Sequence record: PQ799574.1
Reading direction: 5' to 3' (one strand)
DNA length: 64,000 nucleotides
From: Escherichia phage vB_EcoM_Maryam
The number at the start of each line of letters is the position of its first letter. Positions within the stretch are counted from its first letter, which is position 1. Shown one piece after another: positions 295 to 17,630 of the stretch. The translations under genes were made by a program, and so were the position numbers. The notes under the pieces are model-generated. The model was not told the origin of the DNA and did no database searches. It saw only the letters and a program-made list of their open reading frames with translations.

Positions 295-2022
295 TTAGCC
301 AATGTCAATCCTCGATCCATCAATTGTGTATTGACCAGATGAAATAGAACTCATAGATGCCATTTTTTCTGTCCAATCACCACCAACGTCCCAATCAACT
401 GTCCCAGCAACTTTCCAAGAAAGATTTCCATTTACTGTATTAGTCTGATTTCCTTCAACTAAAGTGGTAGCATCTCCTTTAACTGTAATGTCAGCATTAC
501 CTTCAACTACAATAGTAACATTACCTTTAACTAGAATAGTTCCATTACCTTCAACAGTTTTCGTTTCGTCGCCACGTACAAATATTGTATTGCTTCCATC
601 TATCTGGTGAAGACGATTATCCATGTTGTAATAAATTTCTGAACCACCGACGTTAGTCTTTTTATCACCGGCTACCAAAAAATTACCATCAGCATTTGTT
701 ATATCATACAAATTATCGACAGTTTTTCTTGTTCTTCTTCCTGACGGTGATACTTCTTCATAAGTTCCAGTTGGATGAACTAATCTGTATCGTTCTTGCC
801 CAGGGGTATCATCAAATTCCTGAATATGTCCGCTTTCAGTTTCCATTGTATGTACATAAGGATATTCACCTTTATATGAAGAAACTGGTTCTTTGAATAA
901 AATTCTCGAGTCATTTGGAATAGGAGGGTCAGCAGGGTCAGAAGATTTAGCTACAGTAGCAGCCATTGCTGATAGAGACCTAGCTGGGGTTTTCACTTCA
1001 ACACCGTATGATTCCAAATTCCCCGTAAGAATAATCATGGTAACACGGGATGCACGGCCTTTTGTTTGTTGATACCACAATGAATCACGACCGGCTTTAT
1101 ATGCTTTTTCCCAATCTCCGGCTAACATAGCAGTTAACATTGTGTTAAATTTAGCTACACCGCCAACACCCATTTGAAATGCCATATTTTCTAACGCCAT
1201 TTGACGAGAACGGTTGACAGCTTGCCAGACTGGTCCTACTTTAGAATGTGATTTAATGTCCCGTTGCATATCAGCCAAATCACGCTCAAATAAAGTCGTC
1301 GCCTCTTCCATTGTAATAGAACCTGGATTTCCTGTAATTTCACGACCAACTTGTTTTGATAAAACTTTATTAATTTGAGCCATATCACGAACTGGCTGTT
1401 TCATGATAAGATGACCAATACCAATTGTCGGATATCCTTCAGTATCCCAATAAACTTTTAGTCTTAATCCTTCATCACGGCGAAGCATTTCAGCCATTGA
1501 CATATTTGGATTATCATCAGTTGGAATCTCTGATAGTGGTCTATCATCGGGATTTATTGCGGTGTCTAAGTTACTATCTTGGATAACGTTAGAAGACGAA
1601 TCATATCCTACTTCTCCGCCTTGGTTTAGTACGTTAGTATCATTCCCTAAACGTCTAGGATACTGCCCAGTTGGGTCAGAAAATCCTTCAAGTCTATTCG
1701 GTTTTTCGCGAACTATTCCACCATACGTGCCAAGGACAATTCCGTTAGTTTTCCATTTGTCCAAAAAATGACCATAAACTCTAGTTCCTTCTACCGGTCC
1801 AGTAACAGAACCTCCAATTCCTGACATTGCTGCAGAAGTTATAGGTTGAATAACTGACATCCATGGTAATTTTTCAGTTGGAATACCCATTACATCACCT
1901 TGTGCTCTTTGAGGTGGATGCAGACCAACCACACGAACACGAACACGACCTAATTTTAATGGGTCCATTCTATCTTCAACAACACCAACAAACCAATTAA
2001 GGTTATTACTTATCATTTCCAT
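295..2022 (-). CDS. 5: baseplate central hub / tail-associated lysozyme gp5
   Basis: 575 aa; internal lysozyme motif DEGLRLKVYWDTEGYPTIGIGHL (same fold as gene e product); C-terminal VEGN/VKGN beta-helix repeats. Confidence 0.95.
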   Translation of the reverse strand: MEMISNNLNWFVGVVEDRMDPLKLGRVRVRVVGLHPPQRAQGDVMGIPTEKLPWMSVIQPITSAAMSGIGGSVTGPVEGTRVYGHFLDKWKTNGIVLGTYGGIVREKPNRLEGFSDPTGQYPRRLGNDTNVLNQGGEVGYDSSSNVIQDSNLDTAINPDDRPLSEIPTDDNPNMSMAEMLRRDEGLRLKVYWDTEGYPTIGIGHLIMKQPVRDMAQINKVLSKQVGREITGNPGSITMEEATTLFERDLADMQRDIKSHSKVGPVWQAVNRSRQMALENMAFQMGVGGVAKFNTMLTAMLAGDWEKAYKAGRDSLWYQQTKGRASRVTMIILTGNLESYGVEVKTPARSLSAMAATVAKSSDPADPPIPNDSRILFKEPVSSYKGEYPYVHTMETESGHIQEFDDTPGQERYRLVHPTGTYEEVSPSGRRTRKTVDNLYDITNADGNFLVAGDKKTNVGGSEIYYNMDNRLHQIDGSNTIFVRGDETKTVEGNGTILVKGNVTIVVEGNADITVKGDATTLVEGNQTNTVNGNLSWKVAGTVDWDVGGDWTEKMASMSSISSGQYTIDGSRIDIG

Positions 2023-7354: not shown

Positions 7355-7427
7355 TGGGAATTAGCCAAGTTGGTAAGGCACTGGATTTTGATTCCAGGAT
7401 GCAAAGGTTCAAGTCCTTTATTCCCAG
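7355..7427 (+). tRNA. tRNA-Gln (anticodon UUG)
   Basis: cloverleaf folded by hand: 7-bp acceptor tgggaat/attccca, anticodon loop ttTTGat, T-loop ttcaagt. Confidence 0.85.
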
Positions 7428-7428
7428 C

Positions 7429-7512
7429 GCGAGAATGGTCAAATTGGTAAAGGCACAGCACTTAAAATGCTGCGGAATGATTTCCTTGTGGGTTCGAGTC
7501 CCACTTCTCGCA
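7429..7512 (+). tRNA. tRNA-Leu (anticodon UAA)
   Basis: acceptor gcgagaa/ttctcgc, anticodon loop ctTAAaa, long variable arm, encoded CCA. Confidence 0.85.
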
Positions 7513-7520
7513 CCAAATTT

Positions 7521-7594
<74 letters not shown>

Positions 7595-7604
7595 ATTTAA
7601 TTTA

Positions 7605-7678
7605 CTCCGTGTAGCTCAGTTTGGTAGAGCGCCTGATTTGGGATCAGGAGGTCCAAGGTTCAAATCCTTGTATGGAGA
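7605..7678 (+). tRNA. tRNA-Pro (anticodon UGG)
   Basis: D-arm agctcagtttggtagagc, anticodon loop ttTGGga, T-loop ttcaaat. Confidence 0.8.
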
Positions 7679-7680
7679 CT

Positions 7681-7767
7681 GGAGGTGTGGCAGAGTGGTT
7701 GAATGCACCGGTCTTGAAAACCGGCAGTCGCTCCGGCGACTCATAGGTTCAAATCCTATCGCCTCCG
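7681..7767 (+). tRNA. tRNA-Ser (anticodon UGA)
   Basis: acceptor ggaggtg/cgcctcc, anticodon loop ctTGAaa, long variable arm, T-loop ttcaaat. Confidence 0.8.
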
Positions 7768-7774
7768 TAATTTC

Positions 7775-7847
7775 GCTGATTTAGCTCAGTAGGTAGAGCA
7801 CCTCACTTGTAATGAGGACGTCGGCGGTTCGATTCCGTCAATCAGCA
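7775..7847 (+). tRNA. tRNA-Thr (anticodon UGU)
   Basis: acceptor gctgatt/aatcagc, anticodon loop ctTGTaa, T-loop ttcgatt, CCA follows. Confidence 0.85.
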
Positions 7848-7851
7848 CCAA

Positions 7852-7925
7852 GGCCCTGTAGCTCAATGGTTAGCAGCAGTCCCCTCATAAGGGAAAGGTT
7901 ACCAGTTCAAATCTGGTCTGGGTCA
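7852..7925 (+). tRNA. tRNA with anticodon CAU (Ile-2 by position in T-even cluster, or Met)
   Basis: anticodon loop ctCATaa, T-arm accag-ttcaaat-ctggt, CCA follows; D-stem and top anticodon-stem pair imperfect. Confidence 0.6.
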
Positions 7926-7937
7926 CCAAATTAATTA

Positions 7938-8021
7938 GGGGAGTTATCCCGTAGAGGTAGCGGTGTGGACTGTAAATCCATTGTCATTGCGACTCGGGTG
8001 GTTCGACTCCATCACTCCCCA
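7938..8021 (+). tRNA. tRNA-Tyr-like (anticodon GUA, long variable arm); possibly pseudo-tRNA
   Basis: acceptor ggggagt/actcccc perfect, anticodon loop ctGTAaa, variable arm resembles bacterial tRNA-Tyr, T-loop ttcgact, CCA follows; D-arm pairs poorly. Confidence 0.5.
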
Positions 8022-8070
8022 CCAATTTATGACTCGTCGTGAGACGCTCAGTTCTTTATTAGGGACTGAT

Positions 8071-8736
8071 ATGCATTTTTATCTTTATAAAATAACAAAT
8101 AAAATTAATAATAAAATTTATATTGGTGTGCATTCTACCGAAAATTTAGATGATGGATATATGGGTTCTGGTAAATTATTAAAAAGAGCCCAAGACAAGT
8201 ATGGTATAGAAAATTTTTCTAAAGAAATATTAGAGTATTTTGATGATAAAGAATCTATGCTTGAAGCCGAGAAAAATATTGTCACAGAAGAGTTTTTAAA
8301 TAGACCAGATGTGTATAATTTAAAACTTGGCGGTGAAGGTGGATGGGACCATATAAATATTCCTGGGATGCTAAACCAGAAGAAAGATGCTAGCTTAAAA
8401 GGAGCTAAATCGTTTAAATCGCGTTTTGAAAATGATATTTTACTTCAAGAAAAATATCGTAAAATTGGTTCAAATGTATTTAAACGTTTGTGGTCAACTC
8501 CTGAATACAAGGAAAAATTTTTAAATAATAGCAGATTTTTAAATAAGCATCATACTCCTGAAACTATTAATAAAATGAAAGAAATTCATGTTAAAAATAA
8601 TCATCAGAAAGGAGAAAAGAATTCCCAATTTGGTATGATGTGGATTCATTCATTAGATGAAAAAGTTTCTAAACGTATTAAGAAAACTGACCCAATTCCA
8701 GAAGGATGGTTTAAAGGTCGAAAAATGAAATTTTAA
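8071..8736 (+). CDS. segB: GIY-YIG homing endonuclease (SegB-like)
   Basis: 221 aa from ATG 8071; YLYKITN...KIYIG motif; embedded in tRNA cluster like T4 segB; upstream ORF extension to 7963 overlaps a tRNA. Confidence 0.75.
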   Translation: MHFYLYKITNKINNKIYIGVHSTENLDDGYMGSGKLLKRAQDKYGIENFSKEILEYFDDKESMLEAEKNIVTEEFLNRPDVYNLKLGGEGGWDHINIPGMLNQKKDASLKGAKSFKSRFENDILLQEKYRKIGSNVFKRLWSTPEYKEKFLNNSRFLNKHHTPETINKMKEIHVKNNHQKGEKNSQFGMMWIHSLDEKVSKRIKKTDPIPEGWFKGRKMKF

Positions 8737-8739
8737 TTA

Positions 8740-8812
8740 CGGGGCATAGCTCAGAAGGAAGAGCAAGGACCTTCTAAGTCCTGGGTCGTAGGTTCGATCC
8801 CTACTGCCTCGA
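8740..8812 (+). tRNA. tRNA-Arg (anticodon UCU)
   Basis: acceptor cggggca/tgcctcg, anticodon stem aggac/gtcct with loop ctTCTaa, T-loop ttcgatc, CCA follows. Confidence 0.85.
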
Positions 8813-8833
8813 CCAATTATAAGTGAGGAAAAT

Positions 8834-12953: not shown

Positions 12954-13434
12954 TTTTAAAAACTCGCTGGTATGATTTAGATGATGGGGATGATGGCATT
13001 TCAGTTGATAGAGTTGACTGGAATGGTTGTTCCGAAGATATGAAAAATTTGTTGATTAGGGAGTTTAGAATGGGATATCAAGCAGCTAAGCCATCTATTA
13101 TAACAGATGATAAATTCGTGTGTATTCATAATGGTCGCGCTAAGTTAACGAACGCTGATTGGTTCACAGATAAAATTATGATTCTGTGGTATATTATTAG
13201 TCTTCCTGTGACATCATTCGTATTTTACTTTTTTATAAAAAATCCAATGGACAGAATAGGAGATTGGATTCTTTTAACCATACTTGTTAATATTTTTACA
13301 GCAGCAATATTATCAGGAATATGGTGCGTGTTCATTGAAATGCCATGGCGTTTACGCAGACAGCAAAAGATTTTTGATGAAAAGAAATACGCTCAAAATT
13401 TAAATAACTTTATCACTGAATGCAGGAAATTAAA

Positions 13435-13438
<4 letters not shown>
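12950..13438 (+). CDS. membrane protein (paralogous array member)
   Basis: 162 aa; TM helices; C-terminal FITECRKLK. Confidence 0.5.
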
Positions 13439-14407
<969 letters not shown>

Positions 14408-14411
14408 AGTT

Positions 14412-14443
14412 ATTTACTTTCTCCTAGAATTGTGATAGTATAT
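14412..14443 (+). promoter_or_regulatory. early promoter-like (ATTTAC ... TGTGATAGTATAT)
   Basis: imperfect -35, extended -10. Confidence 0.4.
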
Positions 14444-14501
14444 TCACAGTTACTTGAAGAGATAAATTATTAATTAAAATATTTACATTTAAAGGATACA
14501 C

Positions 14502-14975
14502 ATGAAAACATATCAAGAATTTATTACTGAAGCAGCTATTAATTCTCAAATTATTGCTGAATCTTTTACTGATCTTTTGAAATTTAAAAAAGGACAGAAA
14601 ATCACTGCTGTACTGGATGATGGTACAGAAGTTGAGATGGATGTACAAGGATATAATTATGCAGTAGATGGAAAACTGTATAATAAATCTCATGCTAAAT
14701 TTGATTCATTTGACGACTTTGTTAATACAGTTGAAGATGAAAAAACTCGTAGATCCATTGCAACTGGTGATGCTAAGGTTCTTATGGCACATGGTCATGA
14801 ACGCATTCGCGCTAAACAGAATAAAATGGGTGAAGATAATTTCGCATTAGTTGGTTATCAATCTGGTAAACAAACTTATGGCTATCAACGTACTGCTACC
14901 ATGTATAATAAAAATGGTAAAATTGCCTTTGTGAATAGTAAAGGTTCTATTCAGTACGTTAAATCGTTCAAATAA
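14502..14975 (+). CDS. internal protein (ipII/ipIII position) with capsid targeting sequence MKTYQEFITEA
   Basis: 157 aa; canonical CTS N-terminus; sits next to gene e. Confidence 0.6.
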   Translation: MKTYQEFITEAAINSQIIAESFTDLLKFKKGQKITAVLDDGTEVEMDVQGYNYAVDGKLYNKSHAKFDSFDDFVNTVEDEKTRRSIATGDAKVLMAHGHERIRAKQNKMGEDNFALVGYQSGKQTYGYQRTATMYNKNGKIAFVNSKGSIQYVKSFK

Positions 14976-15115
14976 TATGGGAACAACCTGGACCTCATGA
15001 TTCTATGAGGGATTCCCGCCAACCTGTAATAAGGTCGAGCCTAAGTGCGGTAATGGGTAAATACAGAAATGGACAATTCATGCGCCATGGAATGGCCCAA
15101 ACTTAGAGAGAAGAA

Positions 15116-15655
15116 ATGAGAACATTTTTAACTGGTCCTTATCTATCCCTGATGAATGCTTTTACACACCATTCTGATGCTAGAGTAGAAGAAATTTGTA
15201 AAAACGAATATATCCCGCCATTTGAAGAATTACTTAAACAGTACTGCACACTTCGTATAGATGGTGGACGTCAATCCGGTAAATCAATTGCTGTGACTAA
15301 CTTTGCTGCTAATTGGCTGTATGATGGCGGAACAGTTATTGTTCTTTCTAATACTTCAGCTTACGCTAAAATTTCTGCAAATAACATTAAAAAGGAATTT
15401 TCGCGTTATTCTAATGATGATATACGTTTTCGTTTATTTACTGATTCTGTGCGCAGTTTTATTGGTAATAAAGGAAGTAAGTTCAGAGGTTTATCGCTTT
15501 CGCGAATTTTGTATATAATTGATGAGCCTGTCAAATCTCCTGATATGGATAAGATTTATAGCGTCCATATTGACACTGTACACTACTGCTGTAATAGTAA
15601 ATGTTGCATTGGTGGTATTACTCGTCCGCAGTTTTTCGTAATCGGAATGCAATGA
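15116..15655 (+). CDS. small P-loop NTPase-like protein
   Basis: 179 aa; Walker A DGGRQSGKS and Walker B-like ILYIIDEP. Confidence 0.5.
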   Translation: MRTFLTGPYLSLMNAFTHHSDARVEEICKNEYIPPFEELLKQYCTLRIDGGRQSGKSIAVTNFAANWLYDGGTVIVLSNTSAYAKISANNIKKEFSRYSNDDIRFRLFTDSVRSFIGNKGSKFRGLSLSRILYIIDEPVKSPDMDKIYSVHIDTVHYCCNSKCCIGGITRPQFFVIGMQ

Positions 15656-15981
15656 TGACAGACACACAGCTTTTCGAATATCTCTATTTTTCGCCAAAAA
15701 CTATTAAAAATAAATTGGTAAATCATTTTGAAATTTTGGCAAATAACAACATTTTAAGCGAATTTTATCCCAAGCAATACAAATTACAAAAAGGTGTATT
15801 CAAAGGATGCAGAGTTTTGTGCACTGCTCCTAATTCACGGCTAATGAATAAAATTCCGTATTTTACCATGGAATTTATTGATGGACCTTTTAAAGGATTA
15901 ATTACCCAAAGTTTAATGGCATATGATTCTGAGCCATTTTTAATTAAAGAACAATCTTGGATAAATTTATTTTCTAATTGA
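15655..15981 (+). CDS. hypothetical protein
   Basis: 108 aa from ATG 15655. Confidence 0.45.
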
Positions 15982-15988
15982 GGTTTAT

Positions 15989-16351
15989 ATGAAAGCATAT
16001 CAAATTCTTGAAGGCACACATAAAGGTACTATTTATTTTGAAGATGGTATTCAAGCACGAATTATTGTCTCTAAAACCTTTAAAGAGGACTCTTTTGTAG
16101 ACCCAGAAATTTTCTATGGTTTGCATGCCCGTGAAATTGAAATTGAGCCACAACCTACAGTTAAAATTGAAGGTGGTCAACACCTGAACGTTAACGTTCT
16201 GCGTCGTGAAACTCTGGAAGATGCAGTTAAGCATCCGGAAAAATATCCGCAACTGACCATCCGTGTATCCGGTTATGCAGTTCGCTTTAACTCTCTGACT
16301 CCGGAACAGCAGCGCGACGTTATCGCTCGTACCTTTACCGAGAGTTTGTAA
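15989..16351 (+). CDS. autonomous glycyl radical cofactor (GrcA/YfiD-like)
   Basis: 120 aa; C-terminal glycyl radical motif RVSGYAVRF. Confidence 0.8.
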
Positions 16352-16572
16352 TGGCAAAGATAATTATTGAAGGTTCTGAAGATGTGCTAAATGCTTTCGC
16401 CGAGTGGTTTAGTAATTCAGGCGAACAGCAATTTAACGAAGCGTGGAATATGGGTGATATTGATGGAATTTATCCTACGACAGAAATTTCTGTTCAGGGA
16501 TATGGCATTCATGAACCTATTCGTTTAGTTGAATATGATTTATGTACTGGTGAGGAAGTCAAATATGATTGA
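16351..16572 (+). CDS. hypothetical protein
   Basis: 73 aa, acidic; translationally coupled. Confidence 0.45.
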   Translation: MAKIIIEGSEDVLNAFAEWFSNSGEQQFNEAWNMGDIDGIYPTTEISVQGYGIHEPIRLVEYDLCTGEEVKYD

Positions 16573-16831
16573 AGACATTAAAGGTTATAAGCCGCATACT
16601 GAAGAGAAAATCGGTAAAGTAAATGCTATCAAAGATGCTGAAGTTCGTTTAGGACTTATCTTTGACGCTTTATACGATGAATTCTGGGAAGCACTAGATA
16701 ATTGCGAAGACTATGAATTCGCGAAGAATTATGCTGAAAGCCTCGATCAGTTAACTATTGCTAAAACGAAACTCAAAGAAGCCAGTATGTGGGCTTGTCG
16801 TGCAGTGTTCCAACCAGAGGAAAAATACTAA
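16565..16831 (+). CDS. hypothetical protein
   Basis: 88 aa from ATG 16565. Confidence 0.45.
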
Positions 16832-17109
16832 TGGCTCAATTAAGTGCAGGGTTTGGTTATGAGTATTATACTGCACCTCGTCGTGTATCTGCTGCTCCTA
16901 AGAAAATTCAAAGTCTTGATGACTTCCAGGAAGTAGTCCGTAAAGCTTTCCAGGACTATGCACGTTATCTTAAAGAAGATTCGCAGGACTGTCTCGAAGA
17001 AGATGAAATTGCTTACTATGAGCAGCGTCTTGAACAGCTTAAAAACTTACATGAGGTTCGTGCAGAAGTTTCAAAGTCTATGAATAAATTGATTAGATTT
17101 AAAGAATAA
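16831..17109 (+). CDS. hypothetical protein
   Basis: 92 aa from ATG 16831. Confidence 0.45.
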
Positions 17110-17168: not shown

Positions 17169-17630
17169 ATGACTATCAATACAGAAGTTTTTATCCGTCG
17201 AAATAAGCTTCGTCGTCATTTTGAGTCGGAGTTTCGTCAAATTAACAATGAGATTCGTGAGGCATCAAAAGCAGCAGGAGTCTCATCGTTTCATCTAAAA
17301 TATTCTCAACATCTTCTTGATCGTGCAATTCAACGGGAGATTGATGAGACATATGTTTTTAAATTATTCCATAAAATAAAAGACCATGTTTTAGAAGTTA
17401 ATGAATTCCTGAGTATGCCTCCGCGTCCTGACATTGACGAGGATTTTATTGATGGGGTTGAATATCGTCCTGGACGTTTAGAAATCACAGATGGAAATCT
17501 TTGGCTTGGATTTACGGTTTGTAAGCCTAATGAGAAGTTCAAAAACCCGTCACTTCAATGCAGGATGGCAATTATCAACAGTCGTCGTTTACCAGGAAAG
17601 GCTTCTAAAGCAGTAATTAAAACTCAATGA
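17169..17630 (+). CDS. regB: endoribonuclease RegB
   Basis: 153 aa; matches recalled T4 RegB N-terminus and size. Confidence 0.8.
   Translation: MTINTEVFIRRNKLRRHFESEFRQINNEIREASKAAGVSSFHLKYSQHLLDRAIQREIDETYVFKLFHKIKDHVLEVNEFLSMPPRPDIDEDFIDGVEYRPGRLEITDGNLWLGFTVCKPNEKFKNPSLQCRMAIINSRRLPGKASKAVIKTQ

Follow-up and report, generated by a model that had tools for sequence, protein, structure and literature searches.

Directly upstream of vs.8 lies a conserved, SroH-like structured RNA of 120 nt (14979-15098, plus strand), placed between an Ip4-like gene and vs.8, in which a hairpin at the 5' end (H1) is followed by a three-way junction and a further hairpin at the 3' end. The window examined here is a stretch of 64,000 nucleotides from Escherichia phage vB_EcoM_Maryam (PQ799574.1), and in it positions 14979-15098 are a non-coding conserved RNA, not protein as the T4 reference has it. 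The vs.8 ORF by itself changes little, providing a fold and a catalytic hypothesis (K56, D136/E137 and the partner Vs.7) for one uncharacterised T4 early gene; the larger gain is the RNA, which was hidden in the mis-annotated N-terminus of Vs.8, 20-140 nt upstream of the ORF. If confirmed, it is a structured RNA common to phage and host, and the abundant phage covariation supplies a structural model that SroH previously did not have. If this is true, T4 genetics can be used to find the binding partner of the RNA.

The window belongs to a T4-type phage genome, its strand being complementary to the T4 map, and the local gene order is nudE (13420-13875), lysozyme e (13913-14407), the Ip4-like gene, vs.8, vs.7, vs.6, vs.5, vs.4, vs.3, regB (17169-17630) and vs.1. 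A first-pass annotation had placed a 179-aa ORF containing DGGRQSGKS, ILYIIDEP and CCNSKCC in the e-regB region, and an ORF of 179 aa plus stop with all three motifs is present exactly at 15116-15655 (plus strand), between e and regB. That annotation could match it to none of the classic T4 genes, which was wrong, as the ORF is the ortholog of T4 vs.8 (T4p119, NP_049732), a name also annotated in RB14 and noted in the record of phage e11/2. Its view of a P-loop protein therefore stands, while the unplaced novelty turns out to be the known, uncharacterised vs.8. The ORF DNA is 100% identical to that of e11/2 (vB_EcoM_112) and 99.6% identical to that of RB14, and the protein shares 98% aa identity with T4 Vs.8 residues 41-219. 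The proposed check of distribution among T-even genomes finds the gene widespread: tblastn detects it in 1012 phage records, nearly all with the names and ~160-175-kb genomes of T4-like enterobacterial phages, from Escherichia, Shigella, Klebsiella, Enterobacter, Yersinia, Salmonella, Citrobacter and Serratia, at identities down to 36%, and megablast matches the ORF DNA in 662 phage records. Since PHROG 1488 (unknown function) matches Vs.8 over its full length (residues 3-179, E = 3.9e-79), the gene recurs in these 662 and 1012 records, and the Walker motifs are kept in relatives down to about 35% identity, this is no chance ORF.

In T4, vs.8 occupies the same place upstream of vs.7-vs.3-regB, likewise with a full-length PHROG match, whereas the upstream neighbours differ. 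The window has a single Ip4-type internal virion protein gene (14502-14975, plus strand; DUF7412, PHROG 3155) in place of T4 ipIII, ipII and denV between e and vs.8, a replacement that fits the known plasticity of the e-vs.8 region. This phage apparently has no denV at the e-vs.8 locus.

The T4 reference lists Vs.8 with 219 aa, as opposed to 179 aa in the window, because it was given a start within the conserved RNA element, 40 codons further upstream. In the window, an in-frame TAG (15104-15106, plus strand), three codons before the ATG at 15116, splits an upstream 33-codon frame (15005-15103) from vs.8; at the TAG site T4 has TAT plus a 9-nt duplication, giving rise to the annotated 219-aa form. 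Among about 38 distinct T4-like arrangements, the upstream element is open in only two (T4 and locus L009), each in a different frame, and extensions of database proteins use yet another frame (MDNSCATEWPK...). The element and the conserved Met are separated by 61-71 nt in most cases, by 84-102 nt in certain lineages and by about 180 nt with tandem elements, without constraint to a multiple of three. This Met is the start in all relatives compared, and it is preceded in the window by a purine-rich ribosome-binding stretch (AGAGAGAAG, 15105-15113, plus strand) and in relatives by similar stretches. The upstream ATG (15005) lies inside a hairpin and lacks a preceding purine-rich stretch. On the basis of the TAG, the frame changes and the stops in other phages, we reject the N-terminal extension of T4 Vs.8 as coding and conclude that the real vs.8 product is the 179-aa form starting at 15116, which corrects the T4 reference model from 219 to 179 aa. 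The stretch by which the T4 model appears over-extended, 40 codons, is NC_000866 64793-64912 (L003 5794-5913, minus strand). Other spurious N-terminal extensions are seen in RB14 and several database proteins.

Mapping the element across phage genomes, we found that it is more G+C-rich than its surroundings and starts directly after the stop of the upstream gene, whether this is denV (T4, Klebsiella phages) or Ip4 (window). It is present in 1109 phage records by blastn. Its 32-nt core (15022-15053, ACCUGUAAUAAGGUCGAGCCUAAGUGCGGUAA) is almost invariant while Vs.8 is only about 35-45% identical, and occurs once in the window, where 0 occurrences are expected by chance; a covariance model of the phage junction, R1, detects no second copy there. 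Matches to the central 40 nt at 86-95% identity turn up in intergenic regions of unrelated phages, including rV5-like Vequintavirus, Vibrio phage F98 and the 45-kb phage Ivi, and pattern scans of viral and metagenome contigs revealed further copies, among them those in ~46-kb phages and on a 360-kb contig. The copies of rV5-like and ~46-kb phages lie within a few hundred nt of tRNA clusters, on the same strand and mostly upstream of them, and we found no vs.8 homolog near them. The Ivi copy sits between two terminators, one about 110 nt downstream, like an independent sRNA gene. Some Klebsiella and Enterobacter T4-like phages carry two tandem junction copies upstream of vs.8, and in a few T4-like phages the RNA and vs.8 flank an Ip-like gene.

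Several smaller observations accompany this distribution. The tandem loci are L036 (about 566-800, minus strand) and L038 (9030-9330), in which the second copy has diverged (GCCUGUAAUAAGGCCAGUCCGCGACGGUAA). In the ~46-kb contigs L030, L032, L033, L037 and L039, the RNA is flanked by repeats similar to GTGCTCTTTCCGTTGTGG, boxA-like in appearance and possibly regulatory. A scan of a contig collection gave two MAG matches that are partial and probably due to chance, and these were discarded. Kinship with T4 rnaC or rnaD was rejected for want of similarity. The element is not a tRNA.

The three-way junction is supported by comparative analysis and covariation. In the window, the junction (15019-15056, plus strand) is closed by P1, in which CCA (15019-15021) pairs with TGG (15054-15056) around the core. 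The core in turn consists of P2 (ACCT/AGGT with a GTAATA hexaloop), CGA, P3 (GC/GC with a loop ending in AG) and GGTAA. The closing pair of P1 is formed in all 37 sequences of the alignment and uses five pair types (AU 24, UA 5, UG 5, CG 2, GC 1), and it is formed in 52/52 of a larger set. P1 scores 0.162 for covariation, compared with 0.058 for shuffled data, and none of 500 shuffles reached its value, although a control in which the 3' partners were slid by +1 scored as high (0.196) with 50% of cells paired, compared with 89% in the proposed pairing. P2 is ACCU/AGGU, with one G-C replacement in a diverged copy, and its GNRA-like hexaloop is GUAAUA in 36 of the 52 variants, the others including GUAAAA, GUGAAA and GUAGCA. 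The second pair of P3 is never broken, with 47 C-G and five U-A variants; the third is a mismatch in most and Watson-Crick or G-U in 11. The J3/1 strand is invariant, GGUAA. G-U pairs place the RNA on the vs.8 strand.

Outside the junction, H1 has an outer stem of GGGAA (14979-14983) with TTCCC (15013-15017), spanning 14979-15017, and an inner stem of CCTCAT (14993-14998) with ATGAGG (15005-15010), both on the plus strand. Across phage groups the outer stem exists in eight complementary versions that always end 4-5 nt before the core: GGGAA/UUCCC, GGGAG/CUCCC, GGGG/CCCC, GGAAC/GUUCC, GAAUG/CAUUC, GAGUG/CACUC, GUGUAU/AUACAC and GAGGG/CCCUC. The inner stem shows compensatory changes from C-G to U-A (L056) and from A-U to G-U (L047). 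The 3' hairpin, read from the sequence as GCCAT-GGA-ATGGC (15084-15096, plus strand), is conserved in all T4-like versions. In the non-T4 groups, complementarity between the H1 loop and a segment 3' of P1 suggests a putative pseudoknot. What speaks against a structured RNA is the unremarkable minimum free energy of the 143-nt stretch (z = -0.45). Single-sequence folds of the element disagree among themselves. A consensus from RNAalifold, pairing ACC with GGU across the core, was rejected because the changes in the diverged second copies of L036 and L038 are compensatory under the P2/P3 model but not under the RNAalifold one.

The same junction is found in a host RNA. R1, built from 37 phage sequences only (alignment A7) and searched filter-free over 93 kb, scores the window copy at 69.7 bits (15013-15063) and matches E. 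coli sroH at 35.8 bits (E = 7e-9), at a locus itself confirmed as sroH at 201 bits (L083 1418-1578). SroH (Rfam RF00372) shares P1, P2, P3 and the GGUAA junction with the phage element, in the common layout CCCGC(C)A-ACCUG...AAGGU-C(G/A)A-G..AG..C-GGUAA-UGG, the sroH junction reading CAUCCCGCA-ACCUG[CGAUUAUCGCA]AGGU-CAA-GGCAAAGUCC-GGUAA-UGGCG. It differs in having a longer P2 and a second P3 pair flipped to G-C. Moreover, SroH is made as its own primary transcript (PMC5389530) and has its own Rho-independent terminator in the sequence, whereas the window copy has no terminator and lies inside an operon, with vs.8 following 62 nt after the core. The window copy stays below the Rfam gathering score for SroH (80 bits), giving no match in Rfam 15 even at E <= 10, and the rV5 copy aligns to sroH only below threshold (9.3 bits). 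The element is absent from Rfam 15 but may be among the 10,006 unnamed candidates of PMC10690425. BLAST of the phage element against E. coli genomes found nothing, and BLAST of sroH against phages found nothing relevant, so that the link between phage RNA and SroH is visible at the level of motif or covariance model only.

In E. coli, sroH is present in 3743 of 5426 complete genomes, and its distribution has been described as patchy (PMC3318445). Deletion of SroH reportedly sensitises cells to envelope stress and SroH is a PNPase and poly(A) substrate (PMC5389530, PMC13572404), with a function that has been unknown since 2003 (PMC5389530, PMC13572404). The 3' arm of the sroH 5' hairpin, AUUCAGA, could also pair with UCUGAAU just 3' of P1, echoing the complementarity between H1 loop and 3' tail of the phage element.

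We treat the element as a functional RNA domain that is either processed from the early transcript or acts in cis on it. In T4-like phages it heads the operon that begins with vs.8 and vs.7, and what connects it to Vs.8 is its position. Neither a sigma-70 promoter nor a terminator turned up within the element, and 14300-16100 contains no terminator-like site. A strict translational riboswitch acting on the vs.8 Shine-Dalgarno sequence is unlikely, because the Ip-like gene separates the RNA from vs.8 in some phages. A broader proposal, which we put forward tentatively and rate well short of probable, is that the element founds an undescribed RNA class of virulent enterobacterial phages (T4-like, rV5-like, ~46-kb and jumbo) together with host SroH. 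Its members would be ligand- or protein-binding three-way junctions, captured or donated by phages and mimicking a host RNA pathway, and the T4-type RNA would either regulate the vs.8-vs.7 operon as its leader or be released from it by processing, with RNA and ATPase cooperating.

Turning to the protein, Vs.8 probably is a stand-alone, single-domain ASCE ATPase with a terminase/RecA1-like core, coupled to Vs.7. Its relatives are all small (about 165-185 aa), with 21 found by a word-indexed search and 41 by an exhaustive profile search, and were aligned in a set of 12 sequences (A2) and in a set of 31 reaching about 20-30% identity (A3). The Walker A P-loop, D49-S57 (DGGRQSGKS, 15260-15286, plus strand), is of the terminase type, G-R-Q-x-G-K-S/T, with Arg-Gln inside the loop, and G50-G-R-Q-S-G-K56-S57 conforms to the GxxxxGK[ST] of P-loop NTPases. 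D49-G-G-R-Q-S-G-K56 is invariant in A2 and near-invariant in A3. The Walker B strand, I131-P138 (ILYIIDEP, 15506-15529, plus strand), carries the pair D136-E137 and lies in a conserved R-G-x-S...hhhhDE region; its L132-Y-I-I-D-E-P138 is invariant in A2, and L132-Y-I-I-D136-E137 shows the hhhhD plus catalytic Glu of ASCE proteins. In A3, G55 and A59 are invariant, T45, G51, R52, Q53, K56, R113, G125, P171 and G177 are near-invariant, and the DE pair is missing in a few of the most distant members. An N-terminal helix (residues 6-29, LTxxYLxLMxAF, 15131-15202, plus strand) is a further conserved family signature.

The cysteine cluster CCNSKCC (C158-C164, 15587-15607, plus strand) is lineage-specific, being confined to close relatives and absent from MHG19-type homologs, which have WPAMLG there, and from more distant ones. 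It falls in the only low-confidence loop of the structural model (pLDDT below 50 at residues 160-167). We therefore rejected it as a Zn- or Fe-binding feature of the family, since the motif is not conserved. A Toxin_19 match on the cysteine run was dismissed as compositional (18 bits against a cut-off of 23).

The predicted structure agrees with these motifs. AlphaFold with 12 close sequences reached a pLDDT of 47, and a usable model was obtained after distant members from the profile search were added. This model is a confident, five-stranded alpha/beta fold with the central parallel sheet of ASCE proteins, in which the Walker B region forms strand 131-136 and one domain fills the whole protein, without the tandem RecA-like pair of SF1/SF2 helicases. 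We are highly confident that Vs.8 is a genuine ASCE P-loop domain.

For its closer kinship, hhalign aligned the P-loop to that of gp17, and no Pfam family scored above its threshold. No curated family of NCBIfam or PADLOC did so either, and no defence or anti-defence profile, PADLOC included, matches Vs.8. PHROG 2 (terminase large subunit) matches Vs.8 at E = 6.4e-6, and hmmsearch of the PDB with the Vs.8 profile finds gp17 at E = 0.007-0.015. Aligned by hhalign to full-length gp17 (probability 84%, E = 7.3e-6), the Vs.8 family profile pairs residues 48-142 with gp17 residues 158-261, about 95 residues at 19% identity. GRQSGKS is matched with gp17 SRQLGKT, FRGLSLSRILYIIDE with VRGNSFAMIYIDE, and the Walker B ILYIIDEP with MIYIDE. 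Sub-threshold Pfam matches among the 31 family members are to Terminase_6N (19), AAA_14 (25) and AAA_30 (17); for Terminase_6N (PF03237), the window protein scores 12.9 bits against a cut-off of 22 and the best family E is 1.4e-4. Two terminase signatures, Arg-Gln within the P-loop and an RG motif ahead of Walker B, are both found in Vs.8 in the gp17 alignments. The profile evidence, though all in one direction, speaks weakly for a terminase link, and by sequence comparison we put a relation of Vs.8 to the TerL ATPase core at slightly better than even.

Vs.8 is no terminase, because subdomain II, the C-motif and the nuclease domain are absent. It resembles the N-terminal ATPase subdomain I of the large terminase (T4 gp17, PDB 2O0H) and ends 40 residues past Walker B, leaving out subdomain II and the RNase H-like nuclease. 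In contrast to terminase, it has its own conserved N-terminal helix, and its gene lies in the early vs cluster and not among the late packaging genes. The vs cluster is expressed early in T4. There is also structural likeness to the RecA1 domain of SF2/SF1 helicases (DDX1, Mfd, RIG-I, Dda), at 8-19% sequence identity. Unlike these, Vs.8 is a single domain in which helicase motifs beyond Walker A/B are not recognised.

A single RecA-like domain normally hydrolyses ATP poorly alone. The translational coupling to vs.7 is seen in the gene arrangement: vs.7 (15652-15981, plus strand; 109 aa; PHROG 2049, unknown function) starts in an ATGA overlap with the vs.8 stop, CAATGATG or, in L010 and L025, AATAATG. 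The overlap occurs in 25 of 30 distinct loci, namely every locus with a callable downstream ORF, and the downstream partner matches vs.7 in 24 of the 25 (phmmer, E from 2e-75 to 2e-6). It holds across T4-like genera in which Vs.8 is only 35-45% identical. Together, the conserved overlap and the homology of Vs.7 mark a module of two proteins that are produced in a fixed ratio. No recognisable domain or structural clue was found in Vs.7, a nucleic-acid-binding domain included. In the e11/2 record (KJ668714), vs.7 is unannotated and a minus-strand ORF, e112_125, is called there (L002 3650-3883), probably a mis-call.

These features suggest how the protein might work. Vs.8 would be translated from an early polycistronic transcript with the conserved SroH-like RNA as leader, bind ATP through K56/S57 and hydrolyse it with D136/E137. 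Since there is only one RecA-like domain, with neither second lobe nor nuclease domain, the active site would need to be completed within a Vs.8 oligomer or a Vs.8-Vs.7 complex, which is the most economical mechanism. Candidate trans-acting arginines are R113 and R124, both near-invariant, and neither an arginine finger nor a substrate can be assigned for Vs.8. Early in infection, Vs.8 could then serve as a switch or small motor that is driven by ATP and works on a partner, either nucleic acid or protein.

The first-pass annotation had also suggested a regulatory or an anti-defence ATPase. A regulatory role is conjecture. An anti-defence role is plausible by association, because two neighbours, vs.4 and vs.3 (16565-16831 and 16831-17109, plus strand), are known anti-defence sponges, and it too remains conjecture. 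vs.8 is an accessory gene that shares its region with these sponges, vs.4 (Acb2) and vs.3 (TadIV-1), and it heads a cluster that is partly an anti-defence island. The vs.4 product, with a Pfam Acb2/Tad1 hairpin domain (E = 9e-20), is an anti-CBASS sponge, and vs.3 encodes TadIV-1, an anti-Thoeris IV sponge (PMC13243611). vs.6 (15989-16351) has a glycyl-radical, GrcA-like domain. When vs.3-vs.8 (Part I genes) were expressed singly, only vs.3 was credited with inhibiting type IV Thoeris (PMC13243611).

On this background Vs.8 might instead be a terminase-derived decoy or modulator, an early copy of the TerL core that disturbs Avs-type host sensors of the large terminase, or a tuner of the packaging motor, for which ATP binding would matter more than turnover. 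However, the gp17 similarity spans only those 95 or so residues at 19% identity, and the RecA1 domains of helicases match almost equally well; the neighbourhood evidence is circumstantial, PADLOC and anti-defence families give no match, and the single-gene tests reported a block of type IV Thoeris for vs.3 only. Moreover, an early TerL mimic could equally trigger such sensors. We regard this explanation as unlikely.

Equally doubtful to us is that Vs.8 and Vs.7 form an ATPase dependent on RNA or DNA, which would remodel or load like a minimal helicase and whose substrate may include the SroH-like RNA. There is no second RecA-like domain, helicase motifs Ia, Ib and III are not recognised, and Vs.7 shows no nucleic-acid-binding domain. 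Moreover, rV5-like and ~46-kb phages have the RNA but no vs.8 homolog, and in some T4-like ones the Ip-like gene separates it from vs.8. A third reading, in which Vs.8 would be not an ASCE ATPase but a small kinase of the P-loop fold (nucleotide, nucleoside or polynucleotide type), is highly improbable, even though its size (about 175 aa) is typical of P-loop kinases and uridine-cytidine kinase is among the weak PDB sequence matches (E about 0.5).

Elsewhere in the window, ARAGORN finds nine tRNA genes (7355-8815, plus strand), for Gln, Leu, Gly, Pro, Ser, Thr, Met/CAT, Tyr and Arg. T4 has eight tRNAs annotated, Tyr being the extra one in the window, and the tRNA with the CAT anticodon is probably the counterpart of T4 tRNA-Ile.
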